Shown here: positions 749 to 23,424 of the stretch, piece after piece
Position numbering within the stretch: the stretch's first letter is position 1
Layout of the letters: each line of letters begins with the position of its first letter
Assembly (NCBI RefSeq): GCF_900167445.1
Contig: NZ_FUZT01000001.1
Span: 567,839-591,838, forward strand
Direction: 5' to 3'
Origin: Maledivibacter halophilus
GTDB lineage: Bacteria > Bacillota > Clostridia > Peptostreptococcales > Caminicellaceae
Length of the DNA stretch: 24,000 bases
The notes under the pieces: generated by a model
Databases searched by the model: none
The model's input: only the letters and a program-made list of their open reading frames with translations
What the model was told of the DNA's origin: nothing
Translations under genes and position numbers: made by a program

Positions 749-3700
749 ATGGCGAGTTCTCTAATTGAAGAATTATATAGGAAAATATCAGATAAACTTT
801 TAGCCCCTGACTTATTAAATGAAACTGCATTATCATCAGATTTTATTAAGGAATATATAAATTTAGATAGTTTTATAAATAAGATTGATGCAATAGTTGT
901 AAATAAAAATTATTCATGTAAAGCAGTTTTATCATTATGTAAAGATATAATGGAAAAGACAGTAAAAACTAAAGTTCCAGAGGATTGGCTTTTTTATATC
1001 TATCAGTATGCTCTAAATAAATCCTTTCCCGATGCGGTGACTATAAAACTTTATAAACACCTGGATAATGCTTGTATCATATATTTGGAGATTCTAAGGA
1101 TTGTATTAGAGATTCATAAGGTTTCCGATGACTATAGCTGGGAAAATAGTTATCCCCTTGATTTTTTAACTTTAGAAGAAGAAAATGAGCTTGAAAGTAT
1201 TGAAGAATATAGAACATTTAAAAGGGCCTTTCAAGATGAATATATATACGAAATGATGAAGCTAAATGAGGAGATTATGGGATACAGTTCCTTGCAGCAT
1301 ATATGTGGGGTACATTATCTGGCACTTTTCATAGGAAGACAATTGAAAAGTTCAGGTTTACCAATAGATTTGGGGCGAGTTTCCGGTTCTGCTGCAGGAC
1401 ATGATATAGGAAAGTTTGGCTGTAAGGAATCGGAATCAGAAAGAGTTCCATATCTTCATTATTATTACACCGGTGAATGGTTTAAAAAGCATAATATTGT
1501 ATATATAAGAAATATTGCTATTAATCATTCAACTTGGGATTTAGAGGTTGAAAATTTATCCTTGGAGAATCTAGTATTAATATATTGCGATTTTCGTGTT
1601 AAGAAAAAGGATGAAGAAATGCATATCTATAGTCTAGAAGAATCCTTTAACGTAATATTGGAAAAGTTAGATAATGTAGATAAAGCCAAGGAAGATAGAT
1701 ATTCAAGGGTATATGCAAAGCTTAAAGACTTCGAAGATTATATGCTTGATTTAGGTATAGATTTAGATGTTACTCCAGGAAAAAAGAATCCGGAAGAAAA
1801 AGTATTAAAGAAAAAGTATTACTCCTTAATGCAGGGAAAAGAGATAATTGAAAATATTAAATATCTTTCAGTAAATCATAACATAAATTTAATGTATAAG
1901 CTAAGGGATGAGTTTTCATTAAACTCCATAATAGAAATAGTAAGAAGTGAAGATGATTCAAATAATCTTAGGGGCTATTTAAATGGCTTTCAAGAGTATT
2001 CAACATATCTTACCCAAAAACAAAAACTAATTACCATAAGATTTTTATATGAACAATTAATTCATCCTGAAGACGATATTAGAATCCAGTGTGCAGAAAT
2101 TATAGGGTCACTGATTGCCACATTTGACGAAACATATAAGAAGGAAGTTCCGGATGATGTGAAGCTTGAAACAGCTGAATATGCTTCCTATGAACTGTTC
2201 CAGGACTATTTAGACCTGTTTTTATTTCCCAGCAGGCAGATTATACCAAAGCATCAAATGTGGATAGGGAAAAGTGCAAAGGTAATGGTTTTATCTCTTT
2301 TTTCAAACTCTCCTGATTATCAAATCAAGGATTTTATAAAAGTATTGTTGAGATATTATAAAAACAGTCAAGATAAAAGCAATGAATACAAGTTAAATAC
2401 CCTTAATATAGCAAAACATATTCCTATCCATCAGTGTGAAGAAAAAGAAATAGAAATATTAGTGGAATATATAAGAAATAATGTTTATGGAGAAAATAAT
2501 CTTTTAAGATTATTAGCCCTTGAAACAATATATAATTTAATACCTAAGTTTAATAGAGATTCCAATGTTTTAAAGCATATCAAAAAAGAGTTTTGTTTAA
2601 ATAGTGAATACTCACAATTTGCAGTTGAGAATTTTTTGAGATTAAAGATTGCCAATATTCTTGAGTTGGATAATGGTACAATTAGTAAATATAAAGAGTT
2701 TTGCAGATTAGATGAAGAAAAGATATCAAGTATGTTTTTAAGCAATCTTAAGACAGCAACCGATTGGGTAACAAAGAAATATCAGATAGAGCTTATAATG
2801 GAGAATACCTTGGATAATTTGGAGAATACGGGAATACATACGGCAATGCATTTTTGTAATCTTTTAAAGGTCAGTGCCAGTGAAAGTGTGAGAAATAGAG
2901 CAGGAGAAGCTTTAATAAAAATAGTTCCCAATTTGCCCTTTGATCAGAGAAATGATATTTTGGTTGAATTGTTAAGATCTTTAGAAATAGAAGGGCATCA
3001 ATTTACAAAATATATACCAAAATATCTTGGAAAACTTATACTTTACTTAGCTCCCATTGAATTAGATGAACTAATAACGGATTTTATTGAAAAAATAAGA
3101 CAATCCAGTACTGCGGTCATATCGCTTTTGCTGGAAACTATAGGTATAGTGATAGTAAACTATCCTAAGTATAGGGATTTTTGCACTGAATCTCAAAAAT
3201 TTTACAGAAATAGATTTAGTAAGATGCTGGGAATACTATTGAATGGACTTGTTAATAATAATCTTCAGGTTAGACAAGTGGCATTTAAGGTTATAGGGAT
3301 AGATGTTTTTGGATCAAAGGAGCTGAGCTTAGAAGAGAAGAAGAATATATTCAGACTTGCTGCAAAAAAGATTCTTACTCTTTTAGGAAATTCTGAAGAA
3401 TCTAAGGAATTATATTTTTTAACAAATTCAGCCGGATTGAATCATATCTATAGATTTATATCTGATTACAAATTTTATAATGGTCCTATTAAAATTCAAC
3501 AACCAAAAAAGATAGCGTTTTTTCCAGGAAGCTTTGACCCCTTTTCATTGAGTCATAAGGAGATTGCTAAGGAAATAAGAAATTTAGGCTTTGAAGTTTA
3601 TTTGGCTATTGATGAATTTTCATGGTCAAAGAGAATTCAACCTAATTTAATCAGAAGGAATATAATTAGAATGTCTATTGCAGATGAGTTAGGAATATAT

Positions 3701-5638
3701 TTATTTCCCGATGATATTCAAATAAATATCGCTAATAGTAATGATCTTGAAAGATTAAGAAATGTTTTTTCTCCCTGCGATGTTCATGTTGTTACTGGAA
3801 GTGATGTTGTTTTAAATGCTTCGGCTTATAAAAAGGAGAGTGGAACTTCTATCACTTCATTTTCCCATATCATATTTGATAGGAGAAGCCTATATTCCTC
3901 AGAAAATGATGATTTAGCTCTTGATAAAATTATTAAAAAAATAAAGGGAAATGTATTGAGACTAAGTCTAAAGCCCCAATACGAAGATATAAGTTCAACT
4001 CAAATTAGAAATTATATAGATCAAAACAGAGATATATCCAGTTTAGTTGATCCCCTTGCACAAAAATATATCTATGAAAATGGCCTATATAGAAGGGAGC
4101 CCCAATATAAGACCCTTATTCAAACAAAATCTATTTCAATAGAGGTTATATATGATATTTCAGAGGCTTTATTGAATGAACTTACCAGTTTTTTAATAAA
4201 ATATAATGAAAAAGCCTATGATATATTAAAAAATACATTGAAAAAGCTTTCAACTAGAATAATGATTTTGAGAGATATAAAAAACAATGGGAAGATATTA
4301 GGCTTTTCGATTTTCCATTGGATACGTTCAAATATGCTATTTGAGGAATTTCAAAACAATAATGTATCTGAATATATTCGTGAAAATTATATAGGAAGAA
4401 TGATAGTAATTGATGGAATATTTGCAGATAAAGATTTAGATATTCCTAATCTAAATCAAATTATACTTACTGAAAGTCTTGCTTTCTGTCTTGCAAAGGA
4501 CTATACCTATGGAATTTTTAGAAATGTAGTAGAAGGTTACTTATGTGACGATTTACATGAATATTTGGAATTACAGGGATTTAGGCTAGTACCGGGCTGT
4601 GATGAAAATAAACCTGTATTTACTGTGGATATGACGGCTCCATGTACATTATACTTAGGTGTTGAGACCTTTATAAAAGAACCCTTTGTAAGCAATTTAA
4701 ATGTAATGGAGGCTATAAAACGCTGTAGAAAAAGACTTCAAAAAGCTATTGTTAATCTTTATCCTGGAAACCTTGTATTGGCTATAGATAAACAAATGGT
4801 TTTCGAAAATCTCATTAAGAAAATTTGTGATGAAAATGGAGTTCCTACTACACCTGTTACTCCAAGAAAATTAGGTCAGGCTATGTGTGTTCCCTTTGGC
4901 CAGATTCTAAAGGGTTATATAATACCAAATACTGTGACAAAGTCTATGCATACTGAAAAATACTTCTGGCCTAATGTTAAAGATTATGAAATAGGGGCTT
5001 ATCCCTATTATATGAACTTAGAAAATCAAGTGAAAATGATTCGTTCCTTTAATAAGCCTTTAATACTGGTAGACGATTTGCTCCATAAAGGATATAGAAT
5101 AAAGACCCTTGATCCAGTACTTAAGAAAGTAAATGTAGAAGTTAGAAAGATTTTTGCTGGTATACTTTCAGGTAGAGGCAAGGAGCTTATGGATATTCAA
5201 AATAGAGAAGTGGATTTTGCTTATTTTATTCCAAAGCTAAAGGTTTGGTTTAATGAGAGCCTCATGTATCCATTTATAGGAGGAGATACTCTCTGGAGAG
5301 GCTTTTATCCAAAAAGAAATTTAGTTCCTTCAATCAATTTAATACTTCCATATACATCACCTACATTTATTAAAGGGACATCTAATAGGGCAATATATAA
5401 TCTATCAAAGGTCAGCATAGAAAACTCAATAGAAATACTAACAGTTCTTGAATCGGAATATGAGAAAATAAATGAAAGAAGTTTGACTCTGGCTAATTTG
5501 GGAGAAGTATTTATTTCACCAAGATGCCCTGACCATGGAGAAAATATGAAGTATGATTTAAAACGCAGTCCATCCCACTATTTGAAAAACGATTTGACTT
5601 CTTTAGAGCGGCTTGAATATACAATATGCAAGGAATAA
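749..5638 (+). CDS. Giant multidomain protein (1629 aa): HD phosphohydrolase, HEAT-like repeats, NadD/cytidylyltransferase-like nucleotidyltransferase, GNAT-like region and type-I phosphoribosyltransferase-like C-terminus
   Basis: SD AAGGAGG sits 7 nt before the ATG at 749; TAA stop.
- HD signature: HICGVHYLA ... AAGHDIGK (HD codons at 1400-1405).
- HEAT-like signatures: IRIQCAEIIGSL, VRNRAGEALIKIV, LQVRQVAFKVIG.
- Nucleotidyltransferase: IAFFPGSFDPFSLSH (aa 922-936) and ISSTQIR (aa 1081-1087).
- PRTase-like acidic loop: PLILVDDLLHKGYRIKT (aa 1437 onward). Confidence 0.85.
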   Translation: MASSLIEELYRKISDKLLAPDLLNETALSSDFIKEYINLDSFINKIDAIVVNKNYSCKAVLSLCKDIMEKTVKTKVPEDWLFYIYQYALNKSFPDAVTIKLYKHLDNACIIYLEILRIVLEIHKVSDDYSWENSYPLDFLTLEEENELESIEEYRTFKRAFQDEYIYEMMKLNEEIMGYSSLQHICGVHYLALFIGRQLKSSGLPIDLGRVSGSAAGHDIGKFGCKESESERVPYLHYYYTGEWFKKHNIVYIRNIAINHSTWDLEVENLSLENLVLIYCDFRVKKKDEEMHIYSLEESFNVILEKLDNVDKAKEDRYSRVYAKLKDFEDYMLDLGIDLDVTPGKKNPEEKVLKKKYYSLMQGKEIIENIKYLSVNHNINLMYKLRDEFSLNSIIEIVRSEDDSNNLRGYLNGFQEYSTYLTQKQKLITIRFLYEQLIHPEDDIRIQCAEIIGSLIATFDETYKKEVPDDVKLETAEYASYELFQDYLDLFLFPSRQIIPKHQMWIGKSAKVMVLSLFSNSPDYQIKDFIKVLLRYYKNSQDKSNEYKLNTLNIAKHIPIHQCEEKEIEILVEYIRNNVYGENNLLRLLALETIYNLIPKFNRDSNVLKHIKKEFCLNSEYSQFAVENFLRLKIANILELDNGTISKYKEFCRLDEEKISSMFLSNLKTATDWVTKKYQIELIMENTLDNLENTGIHTAMHFCNLLKVSASESVRNRAGEALIKIVPNLPFDQRNDILVELLRSLEIEGHQFTKYIPKYLGKLILYLAPIELDELITDFIEKIRQSSTAVISLLLETIGIVIVNYPKYRDFCTESQKFYRNRFSKMLGILLNGLVNNNLQVRQVAFKVIGIDVFGSKELSLEEKKNIFRLAAKKILTLLGNSEESKELYFLTNSAGLNHIYRFISDYKFYNGPIKIQQPKKIAFFPGSFDPFSLSHKEIAKEIRNLGFEVYLAIDEFSWSKRIQPNLIRRNIIRMSIADELGIYLFPDDIQINIANSNDLERLRNVFSPCDVHVVTGSDVVLNASAYKKESGTSITSFSHIIFDRRSLYSSENDDLALDKIIKKIKGNVLRLSLKPQYEDISSTQIRNYIDQNRDISSLVDPLAQKYIYENGLYRREPQYKTLIQTKSISIEVIYDISEALLNELTSFLIKYNEKAYDILKNTLKKLSTRIMILRDIKNNGKILGFSIFHWIRSNMLFEEFQNNNVSEYIRENYIGRMIVIDGIFADKDLDIPNLNQIILTESLAFCLAKDYTYGIFRNVVEGYLCDDLHEYLELQGFRLVPGCDENKPVFTVDMTAPCTLYLGVETFIKEPFVSNLNVMEAIKRCRKRLQKAIVNLYPGNLVLAIDKQMVFENLIKKICDENGVPTTPVTPRKLGQAMCVPFGQILKGYIIPNTVTKSMHTEKYFWPNVKDYEIGAYPYYMNLENQVKMIRSFNKPLILVDDLLHKGYRIKTLDPVLKKVNVEVRKIFAGILSGRGKELMDIQNREVDFAYFIPKLKVWFNESLMYPFIGGDTLWRGFYPKRNLVPSINLILPYTSPTFIKGTSNRAIYNLSKVSIENSIEILTVLESEYEKINERSLTLANLGEVFISPRCPDHGENMKYDLKRSPSHYLKNDLTSLERLEYTICKE

Positions 5639-5651
5639 AGGAGATGAAAAA

Positions 5652-6896
5652 ATGTTTTTTTACATGCTGGATGATAAGATATTGCTTTCAAATATCAAAT
5701 ATGATGATTTAGAGGAAATAAGTGAAAATACAGCAAGGGAGAACAAAGAAATTATTTATTATTTGAAAAAGGTAGATCCTTTGAAATCAAGAAGGAGATT
5801 TTGTGTATCTGATCCTTTATTATTATTTCTTAAGGAAGAAGGGCTCAATTTAATATATAAGAAGGATTTAGAAGAGTATAATTTACCCAAATGGGTAATA
5901 GATAGAATAAATAATAAAAAAGTTACTGGAATAAATACAAACTACCCAAATTGGAAAAATGCTATAAATAATACCCTTCCAAAGAAATGGAAAGTGAATG
6001 TTTTTGGATTGGGAGATGTTGGCGGCACTCTAATAACAGGACTTAGATTGTTGGGTGGAGATTGTATTTCTGAAATTGGAATATACGATAGAACAGAAAA
6101 CAAGAAAAAAAGATGGATTCTTGAAGCCAATCAAATACTTTCAGCCTTTGATGGAAAATCTTATCCTAAAGTTAAAGGCATTGCTTCAGAAGAGCTATTT
6201 GATTGCGATATGTTTGTGTTTTGTGCAAGTGTAGGTGTTCCACCAGTAGGAGAGAGGGTTAAGGATGTAAGGATGATTCAGTTTGAAGGGAATTCAAAGC
6301 TGCTTTCAGCCTATGCAAATATGGCGAGAAAATGTGGATTTAAAGGAATATTCGCAGTTGTATCTGATCCTGTGGATCTATTATGTAAGTCTGTTTTTAT
6401 AGATAGTAACACCAATGAAAATGGAAAAATTGACTATAAAGGTTTAGCACCGGAGCAAATAAGAGGCTATGGCCTTGGAGTTATGCATGCCAGAGCGGCC
6501 TATTATGCAGGTTTAGCTAAAGATACAGCCCATTATTTAAATGAAGGTAGAGCATATGGGCCCCATGGCATAGGTCTTGTGATAGCAGACAGTATAGAAA
6601 ACTATAATGAAGATAAATCAATATATTTGACAAAAAAAGCCAAAGAAGCAAATTTACAGGTTAGAGAAACGGGTTTTAAGCCCTATATTGCTCCAGCACT
6701 ATCCTCTGGGAGCCTATCGCTTTTAGCAACTATTAGAGGACAGTGGCATTATAGTGCCACATATATGGGAGGAGTTTTTATGGGAGCTAAAAATAGATTT
6801 ATTGAATCCGGTGTTGAGATAGAAATATTAGATATTCCAAATGAATTGCTTCTTCGTTTACAAGAGACCTATAGGAAATTGGAGAGAATAATATGA
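5652..6896 (+). CDS. Divergent LDH/MDH-family NAD(P)-dependent dehydrogenase with an N-terminal extension of about 110 aa
   Basis: The ORF-track frame opens at TTG 5613. ATG 5652 is preferred because SD AAAGGAG (5637-5643) lies 8 nt upstream, just after the stop of the previous gene. Motifs: KVNVFGLGDVGG (GxGxxG), AVVSDPVDLL, YGPHGIG (LDH-like catalytic His context). The TGA stop overlaps the next start. Confidence 0.75.
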   Translation: MFFYMLDDKILLSNIKYDDLEEISENTARENKEIIYYLKKVDPLKSRRRFCVSDPLLLFLKEEGLNLIYKKDLEEYNLPKWVIDRINNKKVTGINTNYPNWKNAINNTLPKKWKVNVFGLGDVGGTLITGLRLLGGDCISEIGIYDRTENKKKRWILEANQILSAFDGKSYPKVKGIASEELFDCDMFVFCASVGVPPVGERVKDVRMIQFEGNSKLLSAYANMARKCGFKGIFAVVSDPVDLLCKSVFIDSNTNENGKIDYKGLAPEQIRGYGLGVMHARAAYYAGLAKDTAHYLNEGRAYGPHGIGLVIADSIENYNEDKSIYLTKKAKEANLQVRETGFKPYIAPALSSGSLSLLATIRGQWHYSATYMGGVFMGAKNRFIESGVEIEILDIPNELLLRLQETYRKLERII

Positions 6897-7942
6897 ATAA
6901 GATATATTTAATTATGCCCGGGGAAATATCTGACAGGCTTTCTAAAATGACTGATGCAGCCACAGAAGGATTAGATATTGATATAATTAAAGATTCTTAT
7001 AATATTCCCGATCTTAGAAATAAAAAAATAATATTTGCAGTTCAGTTAAGTGATATCGGATATAATATACCATTATTTGAAATATTGACTAAGCTCTCAC
7101 AAAGAGGTAGGGAAGCCCTTAGAGGTTCTAATGGGGTTATAATAATAAATAGTTCAAATGAATTATTTACTAAGAGTGCTGCTCAGGATATAATTTTTAA
7201 AACAAATCAAATGGGTTGTCGTTTTCCGGGACATCCAATAGTTGAAGCAATAGAGGATTTAAAAAATCTACGTACATGGCAGAAAAATTTGAGTTTACCC
7301 CTTGATGATATATGTATTAAATTATGTAGAAAACTACGAAAAAACTTTATTAATGACAATCCTAAGATTATAAAAAATCCCAGGATTATAGTACTTCATG
7401 CAAGTACCCATGAAACTTCAAATACTTTAAAGCTTTGGAAGATGACAAAAAAGCATTTAAAAAATTGTGAAATAGAAGAATATCATGTTGAAAATGGAAC
7501 AATAGTAGATTGTAAAGGCTGTTTATATACTACATGTATGCATTACAGCGAGAAAAAATCATGTTTCTATGGGGGGATGATTACTAAAGAATTGCTGCCT
7601 GCAATTGAAAGAGCAGATGCCGTTGTATGGGTATGTCCCAATTATAATGATGCTGTATCTGCCAAGCTTATGGCAGTAATAAATAGGCTGACGGTTCTTT
7701 ATAGAAGAACAAAATTCTATAAGAAAACATTGTTTGGGATAATTGTATCGGGAAATTCTGGTTCCGATTCAGTTTCCAAGCAGCTAATCGGCGCTTTGAA
7801 TATTAATAAAAGCTTTAGATTACCGCCTTATTTTTCTATTATGGCTATAGCAAATGATCCAGATGAAATAATGAATATACAGGATATTGATGAAAAAGCT
7901 AGGGAATTTGCAAATAATATTATGGGGGAAATTAAGGCATGA
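6893..7942 (+). CDS. Flavodoxin-fold NADPH-dependent FMN-reductase / iron-sulfur-flavoprotein-like protein with an extra N-terminal domain (349 aa)
   Basis: ATGA start/stop overlap with the upstream gene; SD GGAGAG upstream. C-terminal half: IIVLHASTHETSNT, Cys cluster DCKGCLYTTC...SC, ADAVVWVCPNYNDAVSAKLMAVINRL. Confidence 0.75.
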   Translation: MNKIYLIMPGEISDRLSKMTDAATEGLDIDIIKDSYNIPDLRNKKIIFAVQLSDIGYNIPLFEILTKLSQRGREALRGSNGVIIINSSNELFTKSAAQDIIFKTNQMGCRFPGHPIVEAIEDLKNLRTWQKNLSLPLDDICIKLCRKLRKNFINDNPKIIKNPRIIVLHASTHETSNTLKLWKMTKKHLKNCEIEEYHVENGTIVDCKGCLYTTCMHYSEKKSCFYGGMITKELLPAIERADAVVWVCPNYNDAVSAKLMAVINRLTVLYRRTKFYKKTLFGIIVSGNSGSDSVSKQLIGALNINKSFRLPPYFSIMAIANDPDEIMNIQDIDEKAREFANNIMGEIKA

Positions 7943-9041: not shown

Positions 9042-9084
9042 GAAAATTATAGATAATTCTAATTTCCTCAGTTAATAATTGAAG

Positions 9085-9121
9085 CCTATTAGTTTTATTT
9101 AAAAAACTAGTAGGTTTTTTT
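9085..9121 (+). terminator. Rho-independent terminator after the lipoprotein gene
   Basis: Arms CCTATTAGTTTT (9085-9096) and AAAACTAGTAGG (9103-9114) with one mismatch, followed by a T-run at 9115-9121. Confidence 0.7.
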
Positions 9122-9286
9122 GTGCTGAAAAATAGTAGGGAAAAACAGCGTTTGCTATACTTTATATAGGAAAAAAATAAAAAAATTACACAAGTTACAA
9201 ATTATGACAACATTTTTGGCTGAATTTGTGTATTATATATATTAAGGACATTAATTAGTTTTGTATCGGATTAATAGGGGGAACAT

Positions 9287-9754
9287 ATGATGCTAGAATA
9301 TATATGGGTTGCGGTTTTTGCTTCTTTTCCAGAGGCTGCATTAGCACTTCTTATGGGATTCAATCTATCAAATGTAAGGGATATAAAATTGTGGAAGATT
9401 TTAATTGTTGCAGGAATTCAATCTGGAATTGCTTTGTTTGTAAGAATGACTAATGTATATTTCGGACTTCATTCAATAGTGCAAATTATAACATTATATT
9501 TACTTGTTATTATATTTTTTAAAATTAAATATTATAAAGCCATTATTCCAGTAGCTATAAGCTATATATCACAAGTGGCACTTCAAAATATTATAATACC
9601 GATAATTAGTATAGCTTTTAGAATAGATATAGCTAATTTATATTATAATTCTAAAAAATTAATTTTAGTTAGTATTCCGGTTTCTTTAATATACTTGATT
9701 TTCCTGATGATTATTATAAGAAAAAATCTATATCTATGTGATATTAATGATTAG
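9287..9754 (+). CDS. Polytopic membrane protein (155 aa, about 5 TM helices); appears to be the N-terminal sensor half of an AgrC-like kinase, ended by an in-frame TAG
   Basis: SD AGGGGGA lies before ATG 9287. The sequence is almost entirely hydrophobic helices. It is in the same reading frame as 9758..10639, separated only by TAG (9752-9754) and one codon. Confidence 0.6.
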   Translation: MMLEYIWVAVFASFPEAALALLMGFNLSNVRDIKLWKILIVAGIQSGIALFVRMTNVYFGLHSIVQIITLYLLVIIFFKIKYYKAIIPVAISYISQVALQNIIIPIISIAFRIDIANLYYNSKKLILVSIPVSLIYLIFLMIIIRKNLYLCDIND

Positions 9755-9757
9755 AAG

Positions 9758-10639
9758 GTGGTAGTTTTGAAGAACAAAAATAAATATATAATTATATTTA
9801 CCATGTTATTTCAAGCCATTATTATAAGTATACTTAATGGTATAATATGGAATTCTAATACTTTAAATATAATTGAAGAAAATATATTCTTTAATTATAT
9901 TCTTACAGTAATTATAGTAATAACAACCACTCTTATATTTATTTCCTTAAAAAAATTTAGCTATTATGAAAAAAAGGAAGCAGAATTCAAGTTAATAAAA
10001 GCCAATATGAAAAATACAGAAGAGTTAATAAATTTATTACATTCCCAAAGACTAGAATATTTAACCCATATTCAATCTATAGGGGCACTGGTATATTTAG
10101 AAGAATATGAAGAACTATCTAAGTATTTAAAAGGTATATCTAAGAATTATAGATTCAATGGTGGTATTATCAGTGCAGGACATCCAGCACTTACTGCATT
10201 GATTAATGCTAAAAGAGAAATAGCCCGTGAAAAAAATATATTTTTCTATACTAGAATCAAACAAAAACTGAATTGTATGAATATACCTTCTTGGGATTTA
10301 TGTATACTTTTTTCAAACCTTATTGAAAATGCAATAGAAGCAGCCTCAATGACGGAGGGAAAAAAGTGGATGAAGGTAGTGATTGATTATTATAATAATA
10401 ATTTTGTGTTTGAAATTGAAAATACAGGACAAATGGAAAATAATATTATGAAAAATTTATTTAAACAGGGAAATACCTCAAAGGCATCTTCGGGAAGGGG
10501 ATATGGACTATATATTTCTAAAAAAATTCTGGACAAGTACGATGGTTCTATAGATATCAAAAATACAGATATAGGTACAGTATTATGTACTGTAACATTA
10601 CCTAGGGAGGTAGGTAATTATAATGAAGAGGTTAGCTGA
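9758..10639 (+). CDS. AgrC-like / GHKL sensor histidine kinase half (2 TM helices, Spo0B-type dimerisation helix and ATPase domain)
   Basis: GAAGGTGG (9754-9761) straddles the upstream stop. Candidate starts are GTG 9758 or in-frame TTG 9767. H-box-like segment LLHSQRLEYLTHIQSIGAL; N-box FSNLIENAIEA; G2-like SGRGYGLYISKKI. The 3' end overlaps agrB by 17 nt. Confidence 0.75.
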   Translation: MVVLKNKNKYIIIFTMLFQAIIISILNGIIWNSNTLNIIEENIFFNYILTVIIVITTTLIFISLKKFSYYEKKEAEFKLIKANMKNTEELINLLHSQRLEYLTHIQSIGALVYLEEYEELSKYLKGISKNYRFNGGIISAGHPALTALINAKREIAREKNIFFYTRIKQKLNCMNIPSWDLCILFSNLIENAIEAASMTEGKKWMKVVIDYYNNNFVFEIENTGQMENNIMKNLFKQGNTSKASSGRGYGLYISKKILDKYDGSIDIKNTDIGTVLCTVTLPREVGNYNEEVS

Positions 10640-11231
10640 TAGTATTTCAAACTATATGGCAAAGGAATTGAAATATGATGATGAAAAGAGGGAGATACTT
10701 TCCTATGGTCTACAGGTTTTTTTAGGAGATTTAGCAAAAACTATAAGTATGTTGGTATTAGCATATTTTTTAAATATTTTTATTACTACTTTAGTTGTAA
10801 TGATATCATTTGTTTTTTTTAGAAGAATTATTGGAGGAACCCATGCTGATACTTATAATAAATGTTATTTTGTTAGTGTTCTTTTAATACTTTTATTAGG
10901 AAAAGTGGGAGAAATAGTTGATCTAAAATTTACACAGATTACGATATTAATTTTAATAGTTTATATATTAGCTGTGATAGCCACAATTTTATGGATTCCT
11001 GCAGGGACTGAAAAGAAAATGATAAAAAATAAAGCTACACGAAAAAAAATAAAAATTGAAACAATGATTTTATTAACATTTTGGGCTATATTAATTAGCT
11101 ATTTAAACAGCTTAGAGCTATTTAAATATGTAATATCAAGCTTATTAGGTGTTGCTCTAGCATTTTTCTTTACAACTCCATTAGGTTATAGATTTATGGA
11201 CTTTAAATTACTTAAGATAAATATTAACTAA
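10623..11231 (+). CDS. agrB: AgrB-family autoinducing-peptide processing and export protease
   Basis: 202-aa polytopic membrane protein. The motif RRIIGGTHADTYNKCYF has His and Cys spaced H-x6-C, the same spacing as the catalytic H77/C84 of S. aureus AgrB. It lies immediately upstream of an AgrD-like peptide gene. Confidence 0.85.
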   Translation: MKRLADSISNYMAKELKYDDEKREILSYGLQVFLGDLAKTISMLVLAYFLNIFITTLVVMISFVFFRRIIGGTHADTYNKCYFVSVLLILLLGKVGEIVDLKFTQITILILIVYILAVIATILWIPAGTEKKMIKNKATRKKIKIETMILLTFWAILISYLNSLELFKYVISSLLGVALAFFFTTPLGYRFMDFKLLKININ

Positions 11232-11247
11232 AGGGGGATAATCAAAT

Positions 11248-11388
11248 ATGTTTAAAAGCTTAAAAACTTTTTTATTATCATCAGCAGCTTGTTTACTTAC
11301 TTTAGTAGCTATGAGTGGCGTTAGTACTAGATGTTGGTATTGGACTTATGAACCAGATATTCCAGAAAGCTTAAAGAGGGATTTATAA
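11248..11388 (+). CDS. agrD: AgrD-type cyclic (thio)lactone autoinducer peptide precursor, 46 aa; not in the ORF track
   Basis: SD AAGGGGGA (11231-11238) lies 9 nt before ATG 11248; TAA at 11386-11388. Translation: MFKSLKTFLLSSAACLLTLVAMSGVSTRCWYWTYEPDIPESLKRDL. It has an amphipathic/hydrophobic leader, a single core Cys and a C-terminal acidic EP-x-x-P recognition tail, and sits directly after agrB. Confidence 0.8.
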   Translation: MFKSLKTFLLSSAACLLTLVAMSGVSTRCWYWTYEPDIPESLKRDL

Positions 11389-11406
11389 TTCAAGATTTAA
11401 CTTTTA

Positions 11407-11502
11407 ATGGATGTTTTAATATGTAGCGACGATCAGTATTTAGGAAAAATGCTAGAGAAAATAACACCTTTAGTAAATAAGGTAAAAAATAGTTTACCGT
11501 AG
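11407..11502 (+). pseudogene. Probable remnant of a response-regulator receiver-domain N-terminus (31 codons)
   Basis: Translates as MDVLICSDDQYLGKMLEKITPLVNKVKNSLP*. The xxVLICxDD start resembles strand beta-1 and the acidic pair of AgrA/LytTR-type regulators. It ends at TAG and is in a different frame from the LytTR ORF. The position matches where agrA would start. Confidence 0.4.
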
Positions 11503-11525
11503 ATAAGTTTCATCTTTATCACAGT

Positions 11526-11577
11526 ATATATGGAGTACGCAATAAATTCTTATTACGTATTTCCATATATTTTTTTG
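11526..11577 (+). terminator. AT-rich hairpin plus T-run between the receiver remnant and the LytTR gene (candidate agrBD terminator)
   Basis: ATATATGGA (11526-11534) pairs with TCCATATAT (11562-11570), with further partial pairing GTACG/CGTAT. A T7 run follows at 11571-11577. Confidence 0.45.
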
Positions 11578-11618
11578 AAGCCCGTTAATATTTAGGACTT
11601 TAAAAGGAGGCAGGGATT

Positions 11619-11993
11619 ATGAAAGCTATTCAAAATGAAATATTAAATGAGAATGATAATAATTTAGATAAACTAGCTATTAAAGAAGAAGGACATATAA
11701 ATTTTGTAATGGTAAAGGACATATTATATTTTGAAAAAAGTCATAGAAAGGTTTTAGCCCATACAGCTAAAAATACATACACTTTGAACAGCACTTTAAA
11801 GGAGCTAGAAGAAAATTTAGACGATAAATTTACTAAAACCCATAGATCCTTCATAGTTAATAAGAAGAAAATCAAAAAGATAAAAGAAGTAGGTGACCGG
11901 ACATACGAAATTCAATTTTTTGATACTGATAAGAAGGCTAGTTTAAGCAGAAAAAAATATGAGGAACTAATGAAAGGCTTGTCTATTTTTTAG
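11619..11993 (+). CDS. Stand-alone LytTR DNA-binding domain protein (124 aa; AgrA-like C-terminal domain without a receiver)
   Basis: Strong SD AAAGGAGG (11602-11609) before ATG 11619. An in-frame TAA at 11601 prevents extension upstream. LytTR-type sequence: INFVMVKDILYFEKSHRKVLAHT...THRSFIVNKKKIKKIKE. Confidence 0.8.
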   Translation: MKAIQNEILNENDNNLDKLAIKEEGHINFVMVKDILYFEKSHRKVLAHTAKNTYTLNSTLKELEENLDDKFTKTHRSFIVNKKKIKKIKEVGDRTYEIQFFDTDKKASLSRKKYEELMKGLSIF

Positions 11994-12332: not shown

Positions 12333-13424
12333 ATGCTGATTCAATGTACAAAGAAACTAATGGATATTCTTAAAACTAAGACAACTTTGATTAAAGATGA
12401 AAAACCACTCTTTTCATGGCATGCAAACCTGATAAGTATTAATCGTAGAAATACCGTAGTCCTTGTCAATGATAGCAATCGTTATACAATTATTTTGTAT
12501 GGACTAAAGTCCAAAGACTTTAAAAAGCTTGATGAAATTGCAATCAATGCTATTCGTGAGACTTTACTGGCGGAAGGGATAAAAGCTGAAATTGTAGAAG
12601 AATTTATAAATGCTTCGCCTAAAGTTAGCTATGCCAAAACAAAAAATAGATCAATGGTTGCAAGGATGAATAAATCTTGTGATAATGTATATTCTTCTGG
12701 AGAAATATTGGATGCAAATTCCATAAATCAAAGCAATGTTAGTATGGTAGTAAGTGCTCTGCTTGTGGGTAATGGGAAAAATGAGTACATATATCCCAAT
12801 GAAAATATGTACAAGGATTTGGAAAACTTTGTATCTTCATCTATCTTTAGCTGTAGGGCCCTAGAGCTAAAAATATTACTTAATCTTTTAAATCACAAGG
12901 TTTGGAGAAGTATCATTGTGCCAGATTATATTACATTTAAGCAGTTTCATCATATACTTCAAATTGTATTTGATTGGAAGGATTATCATCTTCATGATTT
13001 TTATGTATTTGATGGTGACAAGCCTGTTGTTAATTTAGTTTGTAGTAATGATGCTTTTGAATATCCAAATGAAGTACCTATGCTGCAAGAAAGCAATATT
13101 AAACTATCAGAATATCTTCCTAAATACTCAAGGATAAAATACAACTATGATTTTGGCGACAACTGGGAGCACTATATTACTGTAGAAAAAACAATTGAAA
13201 ACTATATGAAAAATTATCCTATATGCATAGACGGTAAAGGAAATGCACCACCAGAGGATGTAGGTGGAGAGTTAGGGTATGATGAATTTTTAGAAGCAAT
13301 ATCTGATCCTAAGCATCCTGAGCATCATGATATGGTAAATTGGTCTAAAATGCAGGGGTATAGAAATTTTGATTTTGAATTGGTTAATAGAAGACTTAAA
13401 GTATCATTAAAGAGATTGAGCTAG
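12333..13424 (+). CDS. pRiA4b ORF-3-like (MM3350-like) domain protein with an N-terminal domain of unknown function
   Basis: C-terminal half carries the family hallmarks LELKILLNLLNHKVWRSIIVP, YNYDFGDNWEH and CIDGKGNAPPEDVGG. SD GAGGGAGGG upstream; TAG stop. Confidence 0.8.
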   Translation: MLIQCTKKLMDILKTKTTLIKDEKPLFSWHANLISINRRNTVVLVNDSNRYTIILYGLKSKDFKKLDEIAINAIRETLLAEGIKAEIVEEFINASPKVSYAKTKNRSMVARMNKSCDNVYSSGEILDANSINQSNVSMVVSALLVGNGKNEYIYPNENMYKDLENFVSSSIFSCRALELKILLNLLNHKVWRSIIVPDYITFKQFHHILQIVFDWKDYHLHDFYVFDGDKPVVNLVCSNDAFEYPNEVPMLQESNIKLSEYLPKYSRIKYNYDFGDNWEHYITVEKTIENYMKNYPICIDGKGNAPPEDVGGELGYDEFLEAISDPKHPEHHDMVNWSKMQGYRNFDFELVNRRLKVSLKRLS

Positions 13425-15630: not shown

Positions 15631-15657
15631 TAAGGTTTAGATGAAGGTGTGAAGCAA

Positions 15658-16461
15658 ATGGTAAGAAAAAGAAGGGAATTAAGTAGTACAGGAATATATC
15701 ATATAATGATAAGAGGAAATGAAAAAAGAAATATATTTCTTGACGATGATGATAGAGAAAAATTTATTAACATACTATTTGATAAGAAAAAAGATAATGA
15801 ATATAAGCTTTATGCATATTGTTTGATGAACAATCATGTTCATTTACTATTAAAAGAGGAAAAAGAGGATATATCTAGAAATATGAAAAGAATAAATATA
15901 AGCTATGCATATTATTTCAACAAAAAATATGAAAGAGTAGGACATGTATTCCAAGATAGATTCAAGAGTGAAACAGTAGAGGATGATATATACTTATTGC
16001 AAGTAATAAGATATATACACAATAATCCAGTAAAAGCTGGAATAGTAAAAAGCCCTTTAAAATATAAATGGAGTAGTTATAGTTCATATACTTCAAAGGG
16101 TTATAATAAAAATAGTATAGTAGATAATAATTTTATATTGCTGATGTTCTCAAAAAATAAAAGAGAAGCAGTAAAACTATTTATAGAATATTCATTACAA
16201 GAAAACGAAGATGTTTTTATTGATGAAAGAAAAAAAGAAAAGAAGAAAAAAATTATATTGACTGAAAAAGCAGCAAGAGATTTTATAGATAAGTTTTTAA
16301 ACAAAAATAATTTAAAATTAGATGAAATAAGAAATAAGGAAAATAAAAAGTTAAGAAATGAGTTAATTTTAGAGTTGAGAAAAAAATCAAATTTGTCAAT
16401 TAGAAATATTTCTAGTTTATTAAAAATCAGTAGGGGCGTTGTGCAAAATGTGAAAACATGA
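15658..16461 (+). CDS. IS200-like / REP-associated (RayT-like) Y1 tyrosine transposase with a C-terminal HTH-like region (267 aa)
   Basis: ATG 15658 is preferred over the track's GTG 15649 because of SD GAAGGTG 7 nt upstream. Motifs: TGIYHIMIRGNEKRNIF, HUH motif NNHVHLLL, QDRFKS and the catalytic-Tyr context VIRYIHNNPVKAG. Confidence 0.85.
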   Translation: MVRKRRELSSTGIYHIMIRGNEKRNIFLDDDDREKFINILFDKKKDNEYKLYAYCLMNNHVHLLLKEEKEDISRNMKRINISYAYYFNKKYERVGHVFQDRFKSETVEDDIYLLQVIRYIHNNPVKAGIVKSPLKYKWSSYSSYTSKGYNKNSIVDNNFILLMFSKNKREAVKLFIEYSLQENEDVFIDERKKEKKKKIILTEKAARDFIDKFLNKNNLKLDEIRNKENKKLRNELILELRKKSNLSIRNISSLLKISRGVVQNVKT

Positions 16462-21620: not shown

Positions 21621-22328
21621 ATGGTGGAAAGAAATAAAATATTAATTATAGATGATGAAAAGGAAATTGCAGATTTAGTGGGAATTTACTTGATGAATGA
21701 AGGTTATAGTGTATTAAAAGCCTATACTGGCAAAGAAGCATTGGAAACTTTAGAAAAGGAGGCTATTGATTTAGCGATTCTTGACATTATGATGCCAGGG
21801 ATTGACGGTCTTGAAGTATGTAGAAGGATACGTAAAGATAAGAATATACCTATTTTGATGTTAAGTGCTAAGTCGGAAGATATAGACAAAATTCTTGGCT
21901 TGACAACAGGAGCCGATGACTATTTAACAAAGCCCTTTAACCCCTTAGAATTAATTGCAAGGGTTAAATCTCAGCTAAGGAGATATTTATATTTAAATCC
22001 TAAAAATTCTAGGGAAACCTATGAAAAGGATGAAATTGTTTGTAAAGGTTTAACTATAAATAAAGCTATACATACCGTAACACTATTTGATAATATTGTA
22101 AACCTGACACCTATCGAGTTTGATATCCTACTATTACTGGCTAGTAATCCTGGAAAGGTATATACAGTTGATGAAATATTTCATATAGTATGGAAGGAAG
22201 ACTATTTAGAGTCAGATAATACGGTTAGAGTACATATTAGGAAAATTCGAGAAAAGATAGAAAGTGACTCCAAAAACCCTTTATTCATTAAAACGATATG
22301 GGGGGTAGGCTATAAATTTGAAGATTAA
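21621..22328 (+). CDS. OmpR-family response regulator, VanR-like
   Basis: Receiver ILIIDDEKEIADL...DLAILDIMMPGIDG...GADDYLTKPF. Winged-helix C-terminus TVRVHIRKIREKI...IKTIWGVGYKF. By eye it closely resembles VanR-type regulators. Confidence 0.88.
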   Translation: MVERNKILIIDDEKEIADLVGIYLMNEGYSVLKAYTGKEALETLEKEAIDLAILDIMMPGIDGLEVCRRIRKDKNIPILMLSAKSEDIDKILGLTTGADDYLTKPFNPLELIARVKSQLRRYLYLNPKNSRETYEKDEIVCKGLTINKAIHTVTLFDNIVNLTPIEFDILLLLASNPGKVYTVDEIFHIVWKEDYLESDNTVRVHIRKIREKIESDSKNPLFIKTIWGVGYKFED

Positions 22329-23424
22329 AATGATAAAGAGTATAAGATGGAAAATCCTATTTGTTTTTATTATAAGTATTTTAGCAGCTTCAATTACAGT
22401 AGTTGGATTGATATTATTTGCTTTGGCTTTGGGTAGGAATTTTAAACTCTTTTATGATATTCTTAAATTACTATATGATACAATAGGGGTTTTACCTTTA
22501 GGAGTATTGGCAGGAATTTTATTTTTTATTATTTACTTCTTTCTATTAAGTCAAAAAACTATTCGTTATTTAGAGGAAATTACTCAAAGCTTAGACTTAA
22601 TAGCAAAGGGGAATTTTGATGTTGAAATTCCCATCAAGTCAAATAATGAATTAGGAGTATTAGCAGCAAATATTAACCTTATGGCTAGTCAAATAAAGAA
22701 GTCTATTGAAGAAGAAAGAAATGCGGAGAAAAAGAAAAATGAATTGGTTACAGGTGTATCCCACGATTTACGCACCCCTTTAACCTCTATTTTAGGCTAT
22801 TTAGGGTTAATTGTTAATGACCAATATAAAGACGAGATTGTACTTCGATATTATATTGATATTGCCCATACTAAGGCATTGCATTTAAAGGGCTTGATTG
22901 ACCAACTTTTTGAGTATACCCGTGTAAGCTACGGAGGAATGAAGGTTGAAATGAAGAAGGTGAATCTAGTAGAGCTTATGGAGCAGTTAATTGAGGACTT
23001 TGCTCCTTCAATGCAAGAAAAAAATATGAAGTGTCAATTACAGGTTTCTAATGAAAGCATTTTTGTTTGGATAGATCCCAATCTAATGGTTAGAGTATTT
23101 GAAAATCTAATTTCAAATGCTATCCGCTATGGCCACAAGGGCAAAGCTATAGATATAGAAATAGATGAGGAAAAAGATACTGTAGTCAAAGTAATTAATT
23201 ATGGAGAGCTAATAGAGTCCCAGGAATTACCCTATTTGTTTGAAAGGTTTTATAGAGTAGAAAAATCCCGTTCTAAAGAATCCGGTGGGACAGGATTGGG
23301 GTTGGCTATTGCAAAAAATATAGTAGATTTACATAACGGAGAAATCAAAGCTTATAGTAGTTTAGAGCGTACAGTTTTTGAAGTAAGGTTAAGGAGAAAT
23401 AAAAGAAAGTTACTAGTAGTATGA
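22318..23424 (+). CDS. Sensor histidine kinase (2 TM, HAMP, HisKA, HATPase), VanS-like
   Basis: TTG 22318 follows a G-rich SD (22300-22309); ATG 22330 is an alternative start. H-box VSHDLRTPLTSILGYLGL, N-box FENLISNAIRYG, G-box GGTGLGLAIAKNIV. Confidence 0.88.
   Translation: MKIKMIKSIRWKILFVFIISILAASITVVGLILFALALGRNFKLFYDILKLLYDTIGVLPLGVLAGILFFIIYFFLLSQKTIRYLEEITQSLDLIAKGNFDVEIPIKSNNELGVLAANINLMASQIKKSIEEERNAEKKKNELVTGVSHDLRTPLTSILGYLGLIVNDQYKDEIVLRYYIDIAHTKALHLKGLIDQLFEYTRVSYGGMKVEMKKVNLVELMEQLIEDFAPSMQEKNMKCQLQVSNESIFVWIDPNLMVRVFENLISNAIRYGHKGKAIDIEIDEEKDTVVKVINYGELIESQELPYLFERFYRVEKSRSKESGGTGLGLAIAKNIVDLHNGEIKAYSSLERTVFEVRLRRNKRKLLVV

Follow-up and report, generated by a model that had tools for sequence, protein, structure and literature searches.

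A 24,000-nucleotide stretch of the genome of Maledivibacter halophilus (NCBI RefSeq assembly GCF_900167445.1, contig NZ_FUZT01000001.1, positions 567,839 to 591,838), referred to here as the window, contains on the plus strand an agr-type locus with the gene order TM155, kinase, agrB, agrD, agrA relic and LytTR open reading frame (ORF), where TM155 denotes a 155-residue membrane protein. Peptide quorum sensing is usually illustrated by the agr system, in descriptions of which phosphate passes strictly from a His of AgrC to an Asp of AgrA. Comparison with related loci suggests, with a probability of roughly 0.58, that in this locus a receptor split between TM155 and the kinase-like protein has been retained as a pseudokinase, that signal production is intact and that the canonical phosphorelay is gone. 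There are two departures from textbook agr: a family of receptors encoded by two genes, and a clade that has neither the regulator nor the phospho-accepting His and in which the receptor is still conserved and strain-variable.

For the scan of a genome collection with the kinase alignment a generic N-box pattern was used; among the matches listed, approximately 15 were useful loci and the rest were mostly unrelated kinases. Of the loci named below, L082 is Paramaledivibacter caminithermalis and L084 is Caminicella sporogenes, both Caminicellaceae; L003 is Anaerovirgula, L004 a metagenome-assembled genome of Tepidanaerobacter and L012 Anaeromicrobium. The independent second assembly of a sister strain, L089, was 99.4% identical to the window over 6.4 kb, and its TM155, agrB and agrD genes were identical. 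L089 has the same TAG between TM155 and kinase, the same Leu in the kinase H-box, the same LytTR ORF and the same overall architecture. The results indicate that these features are not assembly errors, a possibility raised in the initial annotation. Ratios of nonsynonymous to synonymous divergence (dN/dS) are NG86 values, YN00 having failed for many pairs; between species, dS values above 1 are saturated, and only the pairs window-L083 and L090-L091 carry weight.

Two genes for one receptor

TM155 (9287 to 9754, plus strand) ends in the TAG at 9752-9754, which is followed on the same strand by the ribosome-binding site AAGGTGG and the start codon of the kinase-like subunit (junction 9752 to 9766; kinase, 290 residues, 9767 to 10639, plus strand). 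The two genes share a frame in the window and the kinase ORF is open from 9755. The likely start is TTG 9767 after AAGGTGG, not GTG 9758, in agreement with the 290-residue database version P0069. The junction TAGaaggtg was conserved in related loci, with ATG as the kinase start in Caminicella. In the initial annotation the TAG was taken as an interruption of the kinase frame. The codon is indeed present and in the same frame, but it is neither abnormal nor disabling, corresponding to a gene boundary in relatives. A shared frame with only a TAG between the genes was found in the window, L083, L082, L086 and L084, whereas the frames differ in L081 and L003, and in L001, L002 and L005 the two ORFs overlap or use TAA or TGA stops; in the distant L016 they are fused. 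Since frames and stop codons differ between loci, the comparison indicates that the TAG is a gene boundary and not a nonsense mutation. The shared frame in five loci and the existence of rare fused relatives would also fit a TAG that is read through, recoded or a sequencing error, with one full-length AgrC as the product. This explanation is scarcely credible given the differing frames and stops, the placement of a ribosome-binding site and start codon after the stop, and the identity of independent assemblies, and it is already refuted at the level of the family. Pyrrolysine at the TAG was rejected on the same differing frames and stops and agreeing assemblies.

The two-gene arrangement is the rule among homologues. 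Kinase homologues down to 33% identity were nearly all 263-315 residues long, only P0045 and P0049 (446 residues) being fused. An exhaustive HMMER search with TM155 returned 66 homologue clusters, approximately 60 of which were stand-alone proteins of 146-170 residues and 3-4 of which were the N-termini of kinases of 445-463 residues. TM155 aligned with the N-terminus of the fused P0045 and P0049, and in all related loci its gene directly precedes that of the kinase. Upstream membrane ORFs with a PWYV...PE motif also precede short kinases in contigs of Tepidanaerobacter, Syntrophomonas, Moorellaceae and Thermoanaerobacteraceae. Hydropathy analysis gave approximately five helices in TM155 and two in the kinase subunit, which together equal the helix count of the fused forms. 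No match to TM155 was found in Pfam or NCBIfam, and its dN/dS was 0.25-0.45. These comparisons indicate that TM155 comprises the first five helices of an AgrC-like sensor encoded as a gene of its own, and that nearly all homologues have distinct genes for TM155 and the kinase, coupled in translation.

The window contains in series a membrane protein of approximately 155 residues, a kinase of approximately 290 residues with two transmembrane helices, agrB and agrD, and it belongs to a widespread, apparently undescribed clostridial branch of the agr-type systems, the two-gene split being present in dozens of Clostridia. Pfam, NCBIfam and the literature searched contained no account of an AgrC sensor encoded by two genes, which is not proof of absence. 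For annotation, an in-frame stop between membrane ORF and kinase in these loci is to be read as a gene boundary and not as the mark of a pseudogene. Tandem TM155 paralogues were seen upstream of a single short kinase in L001 (two, 3864-4987) and L002 (four, 2691-4987), which suggests that a single kinase subunit could work with any of several alternative sensor subunits.

A kinase-like subunit without the phospho-accepting histidine

The kinase-like subunit contains two transmembrane helices, a dimerization and histidine phosphotransfer (DHp) domain and a catalytic and ATP-binding (CA) domain of the GHKL type. Pfam and NCBIfam identified SPOB_a followed by HATPase_c_5/HATPase_c, the DHp domain matching SPOB_a/DcuS-type models, and the best matches among solved structures were the CA domain (4BXI) and the kinase module (6E52) of Staphylococcus aureus AgrC; no structure of full-length AgrC was available there. 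The likeness to an AgrC-like polytopic sensor is ambiguous, with the CA domain and the five plus two helices on one side and the division over two genes and the SPOB_a/DcuS-type DHp domain on the other. The H-box reads SQR-L-EYLTHIQ. The Leu, encoded by CTA at 10052 to 10054 (plus strand), aligned with the His of approximately 50 homologues including AgrC-type RHDY proteins, and the absence of the phospho-accepting His noted in the initial annotation was borne out. Without this His the canonical His-to-Asp relay cannot operate.

The codon at this position was CAT (His) in L081, L084, L094, L095 and L001-L003; Leu is encoded by CTA in L089, as in the window, and by CTT in L083. It was GAT (Asp) in L082, TAT (Tyr) in L086/L088 and AGT (Ser) in L090/L091. 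Ser was also found in P0019 and P0023, and another Tyr in P0046. The alignment indicates at least four replacements of the His in the clade, by Leu, Asp, Tyr and Ser, no two of which share a codon. Wherever the context was known, the replacement occurred in a lineage without intact agrA, and the His is present in all loci where agrA is full-length; Caminicella and L081 retain the canonical His although agrA is gone. Residues Y123, N191, A192, E194, N222, G248 and G250 were invariant in 32 aligned sequences, the His-less ones included. The protein thus has the features of a pseudo-histidine kinase: an intact ATP-binding domain, a replaced His and retention by selection. No description of His-less AgrC-like proteins was found in the literature searched, which is not proof of absence.

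The main rival explanation is that the kinase is still a phosphodonor, using another acceptor (such as His101, in THIQ) or phosphorylating a partner kinase in trans through its CA domain, with the phosphate passing to a regulator encoded elsewhere. It is consistent with the invariance of the CA motifs and of this second His, five residues downstream, in all members including the His-less, with the DHp domain (the regulator-docking surface) being the most constrained part, and with the canonical His of Caminicella and L081, which suggests a non-adjacent partner. The second His, however, is equally conserved in members with the canonical His and so is no specific replacement, and helix geometry would place a residue at +5 on a different face. 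The replacing residues Leu, Asp, Tyr and Ser share no chemistry, and the window holds no candidate regulator, the only other pair being of the OmpR/HisKA type. A search with full-length AgrA gave no match named Paramaledivibacter or Caminicella, a weak point as most matches were nameless. Phosphate donation is considered rather unlikely. Two further alternatives, weighed below, are less likely still: that the sensing half is decaying, and that the kinase and the LytTR protein form a dedicated pair.

Selection on the receptor

The window and L083, both with Leu, differed in the linker and DHp domain with dN 0.038, dS 0.643 and dN/dS 0.06 (19 changes at 44 synonymous sites versus 7 at 187 nonsynonymous sites, Fisher p = 1.3e-10), and synonymous differences were located on both sides of the Leu codon. 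For the CA domain of this pair dN/dS was 0.16 and for DHp and CA together 0.10, while the two transmembrane helices of the kinase gave 0.58-0.67 (0.67 for window versus L083). The DHp domains of L090 and L091, both with Ser, gave dN 0.005, dS 0.669 and dN/dS 0.01, with 20 synonymous changes and 1 nonsynonymous change (p = 1.8e-15). No stop or frameshift was found in the kinase or TM155 in approximately 12 lineages, despite the destroyed neighboring agrA. The results indicate that the His-less kinase is under strong purifying selection and is not decaying. Polarity or coupling to agrB could keep the ORF open, but cannot explain why amino acids are constrained while synonymous sites are free to change.

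These values bear on the proposal, made in the initial annotation, of a locus decaying into a signal producer that cannot sense. In its simplest form the sensing half would be dead and only the signal made, TM155 and the kinase being pseudogenes-to-be that remain open because of their position between promoter and agrBD and their coupling to agrB. The agrA pseudogene, the loss of the His, the 17-nt overlap of kinase and agrB that suggests translational coupling, and the lack of LytTR-type repeats upstream of the operon are in keeping with it, as are the agrBD-only and agrA-less loci known in Clostridioides difficile (PMC3901668). Polarity or coupling would nevertheless select against stops and not against amino-acid changes, and the DHp ratios of 0.06 and 0.01 were obtained at dS ~0.65. 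The ATP-binding residues are invariant, the sensor helices are hypervariable in an allele-like manner within one species, and the adjacent agrA did gain stops, deletions and near-neutral substitutions. Decay therefore describes agrA but not the receptor, and as an account of the whole sensing half it is improbable.

The comparison with L083, a short SRA contig that carries no agrD, also revealed a mosaic. The upstream gene and the intergenic region were 98-100% identical, as were the initial 50 nt of TM155 and the CA domain (10177-10596), but identity was 60-82% across TM155 and the two kinase helices, 85-92% in the DHp domain and 55-88% in agrB. Variation of the sensor in this manner is as expected if the receptor has co-diverged with its peptide. 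In this the mosaic is like staphylococcal agr with its hypervariable specificity region (PMC10482373), except that the C-B-D order divides the variable part into two blocks. Between the window and L089, 7 of the 38 single-base differences were clustered in 32 nt of the CA domain (10249-10280; R163K, I164V, N169D, N172D and three synonymous changes), probably a short recombination patch.

Signal production

The signal-production half, AgrB and AgrD, is intact. The agrB gene (10623 to 11231, plus strand) encodes the AgrD-processing membrane peptidase (PF04647, E 1.5e-38), in which the motif GGTH-ADTYNK-C gives the catalytic H-x6-C spacing, conserved in relatives; dN/dS was 0.16-0.39. Its ATG at 10623 overlaps the end of the kinase gene at 10639 by 17 nt. 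The agrD gene (11248 to 11388, plus strand) encodes a 46-residue autoinducing-peptide precursor (TIGR04223, E 8e-12) with the predicted ring residues CWYWT followed by YEPDIPESLKRDL, the ring boundaries being predicted from the staphylococcal AgrD. Among relatives the four residues that follow the Cys or Ser differ (CMHWT, SMLFT, CMLWV, SMWLL), and the YEPD.P tail is conserved. From these features, continued production of a cyclic thiolactone peptide is most likely. The AgrD proteins of L082, L084, L003, L090 and L091 have Ser in place of Cys at the ring-forming position, and these loci would therefore produce lactone rather than thiolactone peptides. The C-B-D-(A) order, the overlap, the AgrB spacing and the length of AgrD had all been recognized in the initial annotation and were confirmed.

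Decay of agrA

A receiver and LytTR regulator of 237-245 residues follows agrD in L001, L002, L003, L005, L006, L008, L009, L012 and L015; in L004 the regulator precedes agrD (TM157-kinase-agrB-agrA-agrD, 4528-7470). Since the full regulator follows agrD in most relatives that have agrA, the comparison indicates that TM155-kinase-agrB-agrD-agrA is the ancestral order of the split-receptor family and not a rearrangement.

No such regulator is present in the window, where the receiver is destroyed and only the LytTR ORF remains. The receiver part of the agrA pseudogene extends from 11407 to 11595 (plus strand), the layout being derived from tblastn with the full-length AgrA of L012. It begins with a 31-residue ORF (11407-11502) homologous to the N-terminus of full-length AgrA-like regulators in related loci, in a frame that reads MDVLICSDDQYLGKMLEKIT. 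The first 20 codons are kept and approximately 36 are then missing, including the DIDMP segment with the acceptor Asp. An in-frame TAG (11500-11502) is followed by a relic of beta4-alpha4-beta5 (ISFIFITVYMEYAINSYYVFPYIF-LKPVNI) that ends at a second stop, at 11593, and owing to an indel near 11607 the LytTR ORF lies in another frame. When the window was compared with L081, the relic gave dN/dS 0.68 at dS 0.34. Since agrB and agrD gave ~0.23-0.24 at similar dS, the results indicate that the relic evolved close to neutrally.

Intact agrA was absent in all relatives with at least 57% kinase identity whose contig reaches past agrD. In L081 the gene contains three stops and is truncated beside an IS200-like gene; approximately 20 codons are left in L082, L086-L088 and L094, a faint trace in L084 and nothing in L090 and L091. 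The dN/dS of the relic would fit an early inactivation followed by independent erosion, the alternative considered being separate recent losses in each lineage. It had been anticipated that relatives with an uninterrupted, His-bearing AgrC and a full AgrA would point to simple recent decay. Distant relatives do have the His and a full AgrA, but their receptor is split as well, and close relatives share the loss of agrA.

IS200-like Y1 transposase genes were present at 15649-16461 of the window and at 6964-7830 of L081, the latter adjoining the broken agrA. The window and L089 diverge from 12008 on, 3' of the LytTR ORF. DNA on the 3' side of agrD thus seems prone to rearrangement.

The LytTR-only reading frame

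The surviving 3' part of agrA forms an ORF of 124 residues (11619 to 11993, plus strand) that matched PF04397 only (E 1.3e-23) and aligned with residues 119-234 of full-length AgrA, the linker and DNA-binding domain. A new ATG is preceded at 8 nt by AAGGAGG. The description of the regulator as a LytTR domain with a strong Shine-Dalgarno sequence and a lost receiver was therefore correct. As L081 shows, the GGAGG was already part of the coding sequence in the ancestral gene. Directly upstream, a terminator-like hairpin with a T-run (11527 to 11576, plus strand) occupies former agrA coding sequence; the RNA fold of 11490-11625 gave -28.3 kcal/mol with a z-score of -3.2. The consensus terminator scan did not report the hairpin at 11527-11569, and the promoter scan gave no match for the LytTR ORF after it. 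Transcription of the agrBD operon may now terminate at this hairpin.

A His-less kinase and a receiver-less LytTR protein acting together without phosphotransfer had been suggested as a two-protein circuit. Both ORFs are intact in two strains, the LytTR ORF combines a perfect AAGGAGG with an ATG and keeps 24 of the 29 highly conserved family positions, and the LytTR part lacks disabling mutations where the receiver part has several. Stand-alone LytTR regulators also exist, namely HdrR and BrsR of Streptococcus mutans (PMC6193735) and the 160-residue Caloranaerobacter relative described below. Against the circuit, a homologue search returned the ORF itself and nothing else, its one close homologue being that of sister strain L089, from which it differs by 4 nonsynonymous and 3 synonymous changes, and it is no better conserved than the dead receiver relic. 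The lineages with Asp, Tyr or Ser have no adjoining LytTR gene, yet their kinase is equally conserved; the receiver, the kinase-docking surface, is gone; the hairpin lies just upstream with no recognizable promoter after it; the ribosome-binding sequence predates the ORF; and no LytTR-type direct repeats occur in the window. The kinase half of the suggestion stands, in that the kinase is retained. The LytTR half does not, and joint action of the two proteins is improbable. Function of the LytTR ORF in any capacity is doubtful, and it is probably a pseudogene relic seen only in this species, in both strains, an example of how LytTR-only ORFs can be fragments of dead regulators.

A system of the LytTR regulator plus inhibitor type (HdrRM/BrsRM) was considered for the LytTR ORF and rejected as there is no membrane inhibitor gene; the next gene (12333-13424) matched PRiA4_ORF3/DUF6933 and encodes no hydrophobic segments. 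In L092 (Caloranaerobacter sp. DY30410) a 160-residue LytTR-only relative of the AgrA family (5001-5483; 55% identity over the DNA-binding part) is located directly upstream of a lanthipeptide cluster with a 59-residue precursor, an ABC transporter and a LanB-type dehydratase, and it looks like a conserved stand-alone regulator.

Upstream control elements

Upstream of the operon a promoter-like block (9173 to 9245, plus strand) contains, in this order, an A-tract, TTACAAATTATGACAACATTTTTGG and TGTGTATTATAT. When the upstream regions of nine related loci (window, L081, L082, L083, L084, L086, L090, L091 and L095) were aligned, the block proved to be conserved though the surrounding intergenic DNA differs. 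It contains TTGACA-like and TATAAT-like hexamers approximately 21 nt apart, both perfect in L082, and the promoter scan gave a weak sigma-70-like match at 9216-9243. The upstream gene is closed by a terminator at 9081-9118. Lineages that lack agrA retain the block as well, so that control of the operon probably lies with another factor. LytTR-type direct repeats with 20-22 bp spacing were found neither upstream of the operon nor in any intergenic region of the window. In L004 a perfect 10-bp direct repeat, CAGTTGTACC, occurs upstream at 21-bp spacing, and in L003 CAGTTTATCG/CAATTTACCG occur at 20-bp spacing approximately 180 nt upstream of TM155. Both sets of repeats contain CAGTT, both loci have a full agrA, and the repeats are candidate LytTR boxes.

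Proposed mechanism and its weight

For the retained split receptor we infer a TM155-kinase complex, peptide binding by it and a pseudokinase output. TM155 and the kinase-like subunit would assemble into a peptide receptor, and binding of the peptide would change the conformation of the conserved DHp/ATP-binding module. The module would in turn act on a partner, for which a non-adjacent response regulator, bound or dephosphorylated by it, or another kinase is a candidate.

Several points weigh against this account. The pseudokinase output is proposed by analogy with DivL, and receptor function is argued from sequence. A relocated agrA or a partner kinase may exist outside the window. The presence of Leu throughout the divergence of the window and L083 would follow from parsimony, and the strong conservation of the DHp domain also fits a kinase working through another acceptor. 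L083, L090 and L091 are short metagenomic or SRA contigs, and chimeric assembly could affect the mosaic pattern, although the dN/dS results are independent of it.

A broader generalization is put forward tentatively, namely that agr-type receptors can work without phosphotransfer: a split seven-helix receptor would have lost its His at least four times after the loss of agrA, stayed under very strong selection with strain-specific sensor alleles, and gained a new, non-phosphorelay output. If true, a new output route for peptide signals would be at hand, together with a natural series (His, Leu, Asp, Tyr, Ser) in which to study the passage from histidine kinase to pseudokinase. Separately, the division of the receptor over two genes, with as many as four TM155 paralogues in tandem in one relative, would make ligand specificity modular, so that it could be altered or multiplied.

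Other features of the window

A very large ORF of 1629 residues (749-5638) heads a block syntenic with related genomes, which holds an Ldh_1_N-like protein of 414-427 residues, a 349-residue FMN_red protein and a 319-residue lipoprotein-like protein. The segment 19049-23424 encodes a D-Ala-D-Ala ligase, a MurF-like ligase and, after these, a response regulator of the OmpR type with a HisKA kinase. Apart from the last two (21621-23424), which appear unrelated to the agr locus, the window has no complete two-component pair. No RNA families were found in the window with Rfam.

Comparison with known systems

Among known pseudokinases the likeness is to Caulobacter DivL, in which Tyr replaces the His, as it does here in the relatives P0008 and P0046: a conserved kinase fold without the phospho-His that presumably signals by contact. 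DivL binds DivK~P to control CckA (PMC4211667; bioRxiv 10.1101/812529). It belongs to an unrelated kinase family and another cellular context, and the mechanism of DivL has been demonstrated whereas that proposed here is drawn from the genes themselves. The short kinase subunit also resembles an engineered truncated AgrC (TM5-6 and the cytoplasmic domain) reconstituted in liposomes (PMC3841183); that construct is artificial and keeps its His, whereas the split described here is natural and the other helices come from a separate gene. The "split histidine kinases" of the literature are divided between DHp and CA and not within the sensor (PMC3591291).

The HdrRM and BrsRM systems of S. mutans pair a stand-alone LytTR regulator with a membrane inhibitor (PMC6193735). 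The LytTR ORF of the window likewise lacks a receiver domain, but no co-transcribed membrane inhibitor gene is present and the ORF is a fragment of agrA.

The agrBD-only loci (C. difficile agr1 and those of Clostridium botulinum/Clostridium sporogenes and Clostridium perfringens) share signal production without an adjacent cognate regulator (PMC3901668, PMC8534292, PMC10602386). They differ in having no receptor, whereas here a receptor-like pair is retained and constrained beside agrBD. The nearest organizational match is agr3 of C. difficile (phage phiCDHM1; strains NAP07/NAP08), with the order agrC-agrB-agrD, an agrC that overlaps agrB and no agrA (PMC3901668). The window has the same order, with agrA as a relic only. 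AgrC of agr3 differs in being a single chain of 453 residues that retains the His (YHDMKNH). A tblastn search of a phage collection with the kinase and AgrB of the window did not return phiCDHM1, and the agr3 sequence is not detectably close.

The locus is in agreement with staphylococcal agr (agrBDCA, in which AgrC is an HPK10 kinase and AgrA a receiver with LytTR) in the H-x6-C spacing of AgrB, in a short AgrD with Cys and an acidic, Pro-containing tail, and in a polytopic receptor whose cytoplasmic part is nearest to 4BXI and 6E52; relatives of the window also have a receiver and LytTR regulator. The hypervariable sensor helices and agrB beside a conserved kinase domain likewise recall the agr specificity groups (PMC10482373). 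The differences are the order C-B-D-A in place of B-D-C-A, the sensor divided into five and two helices, the SPOB_a/DcuS-type DHp domain, the Leu at the position of the phospho-accepting His, and an agrA that is a pseudogene.

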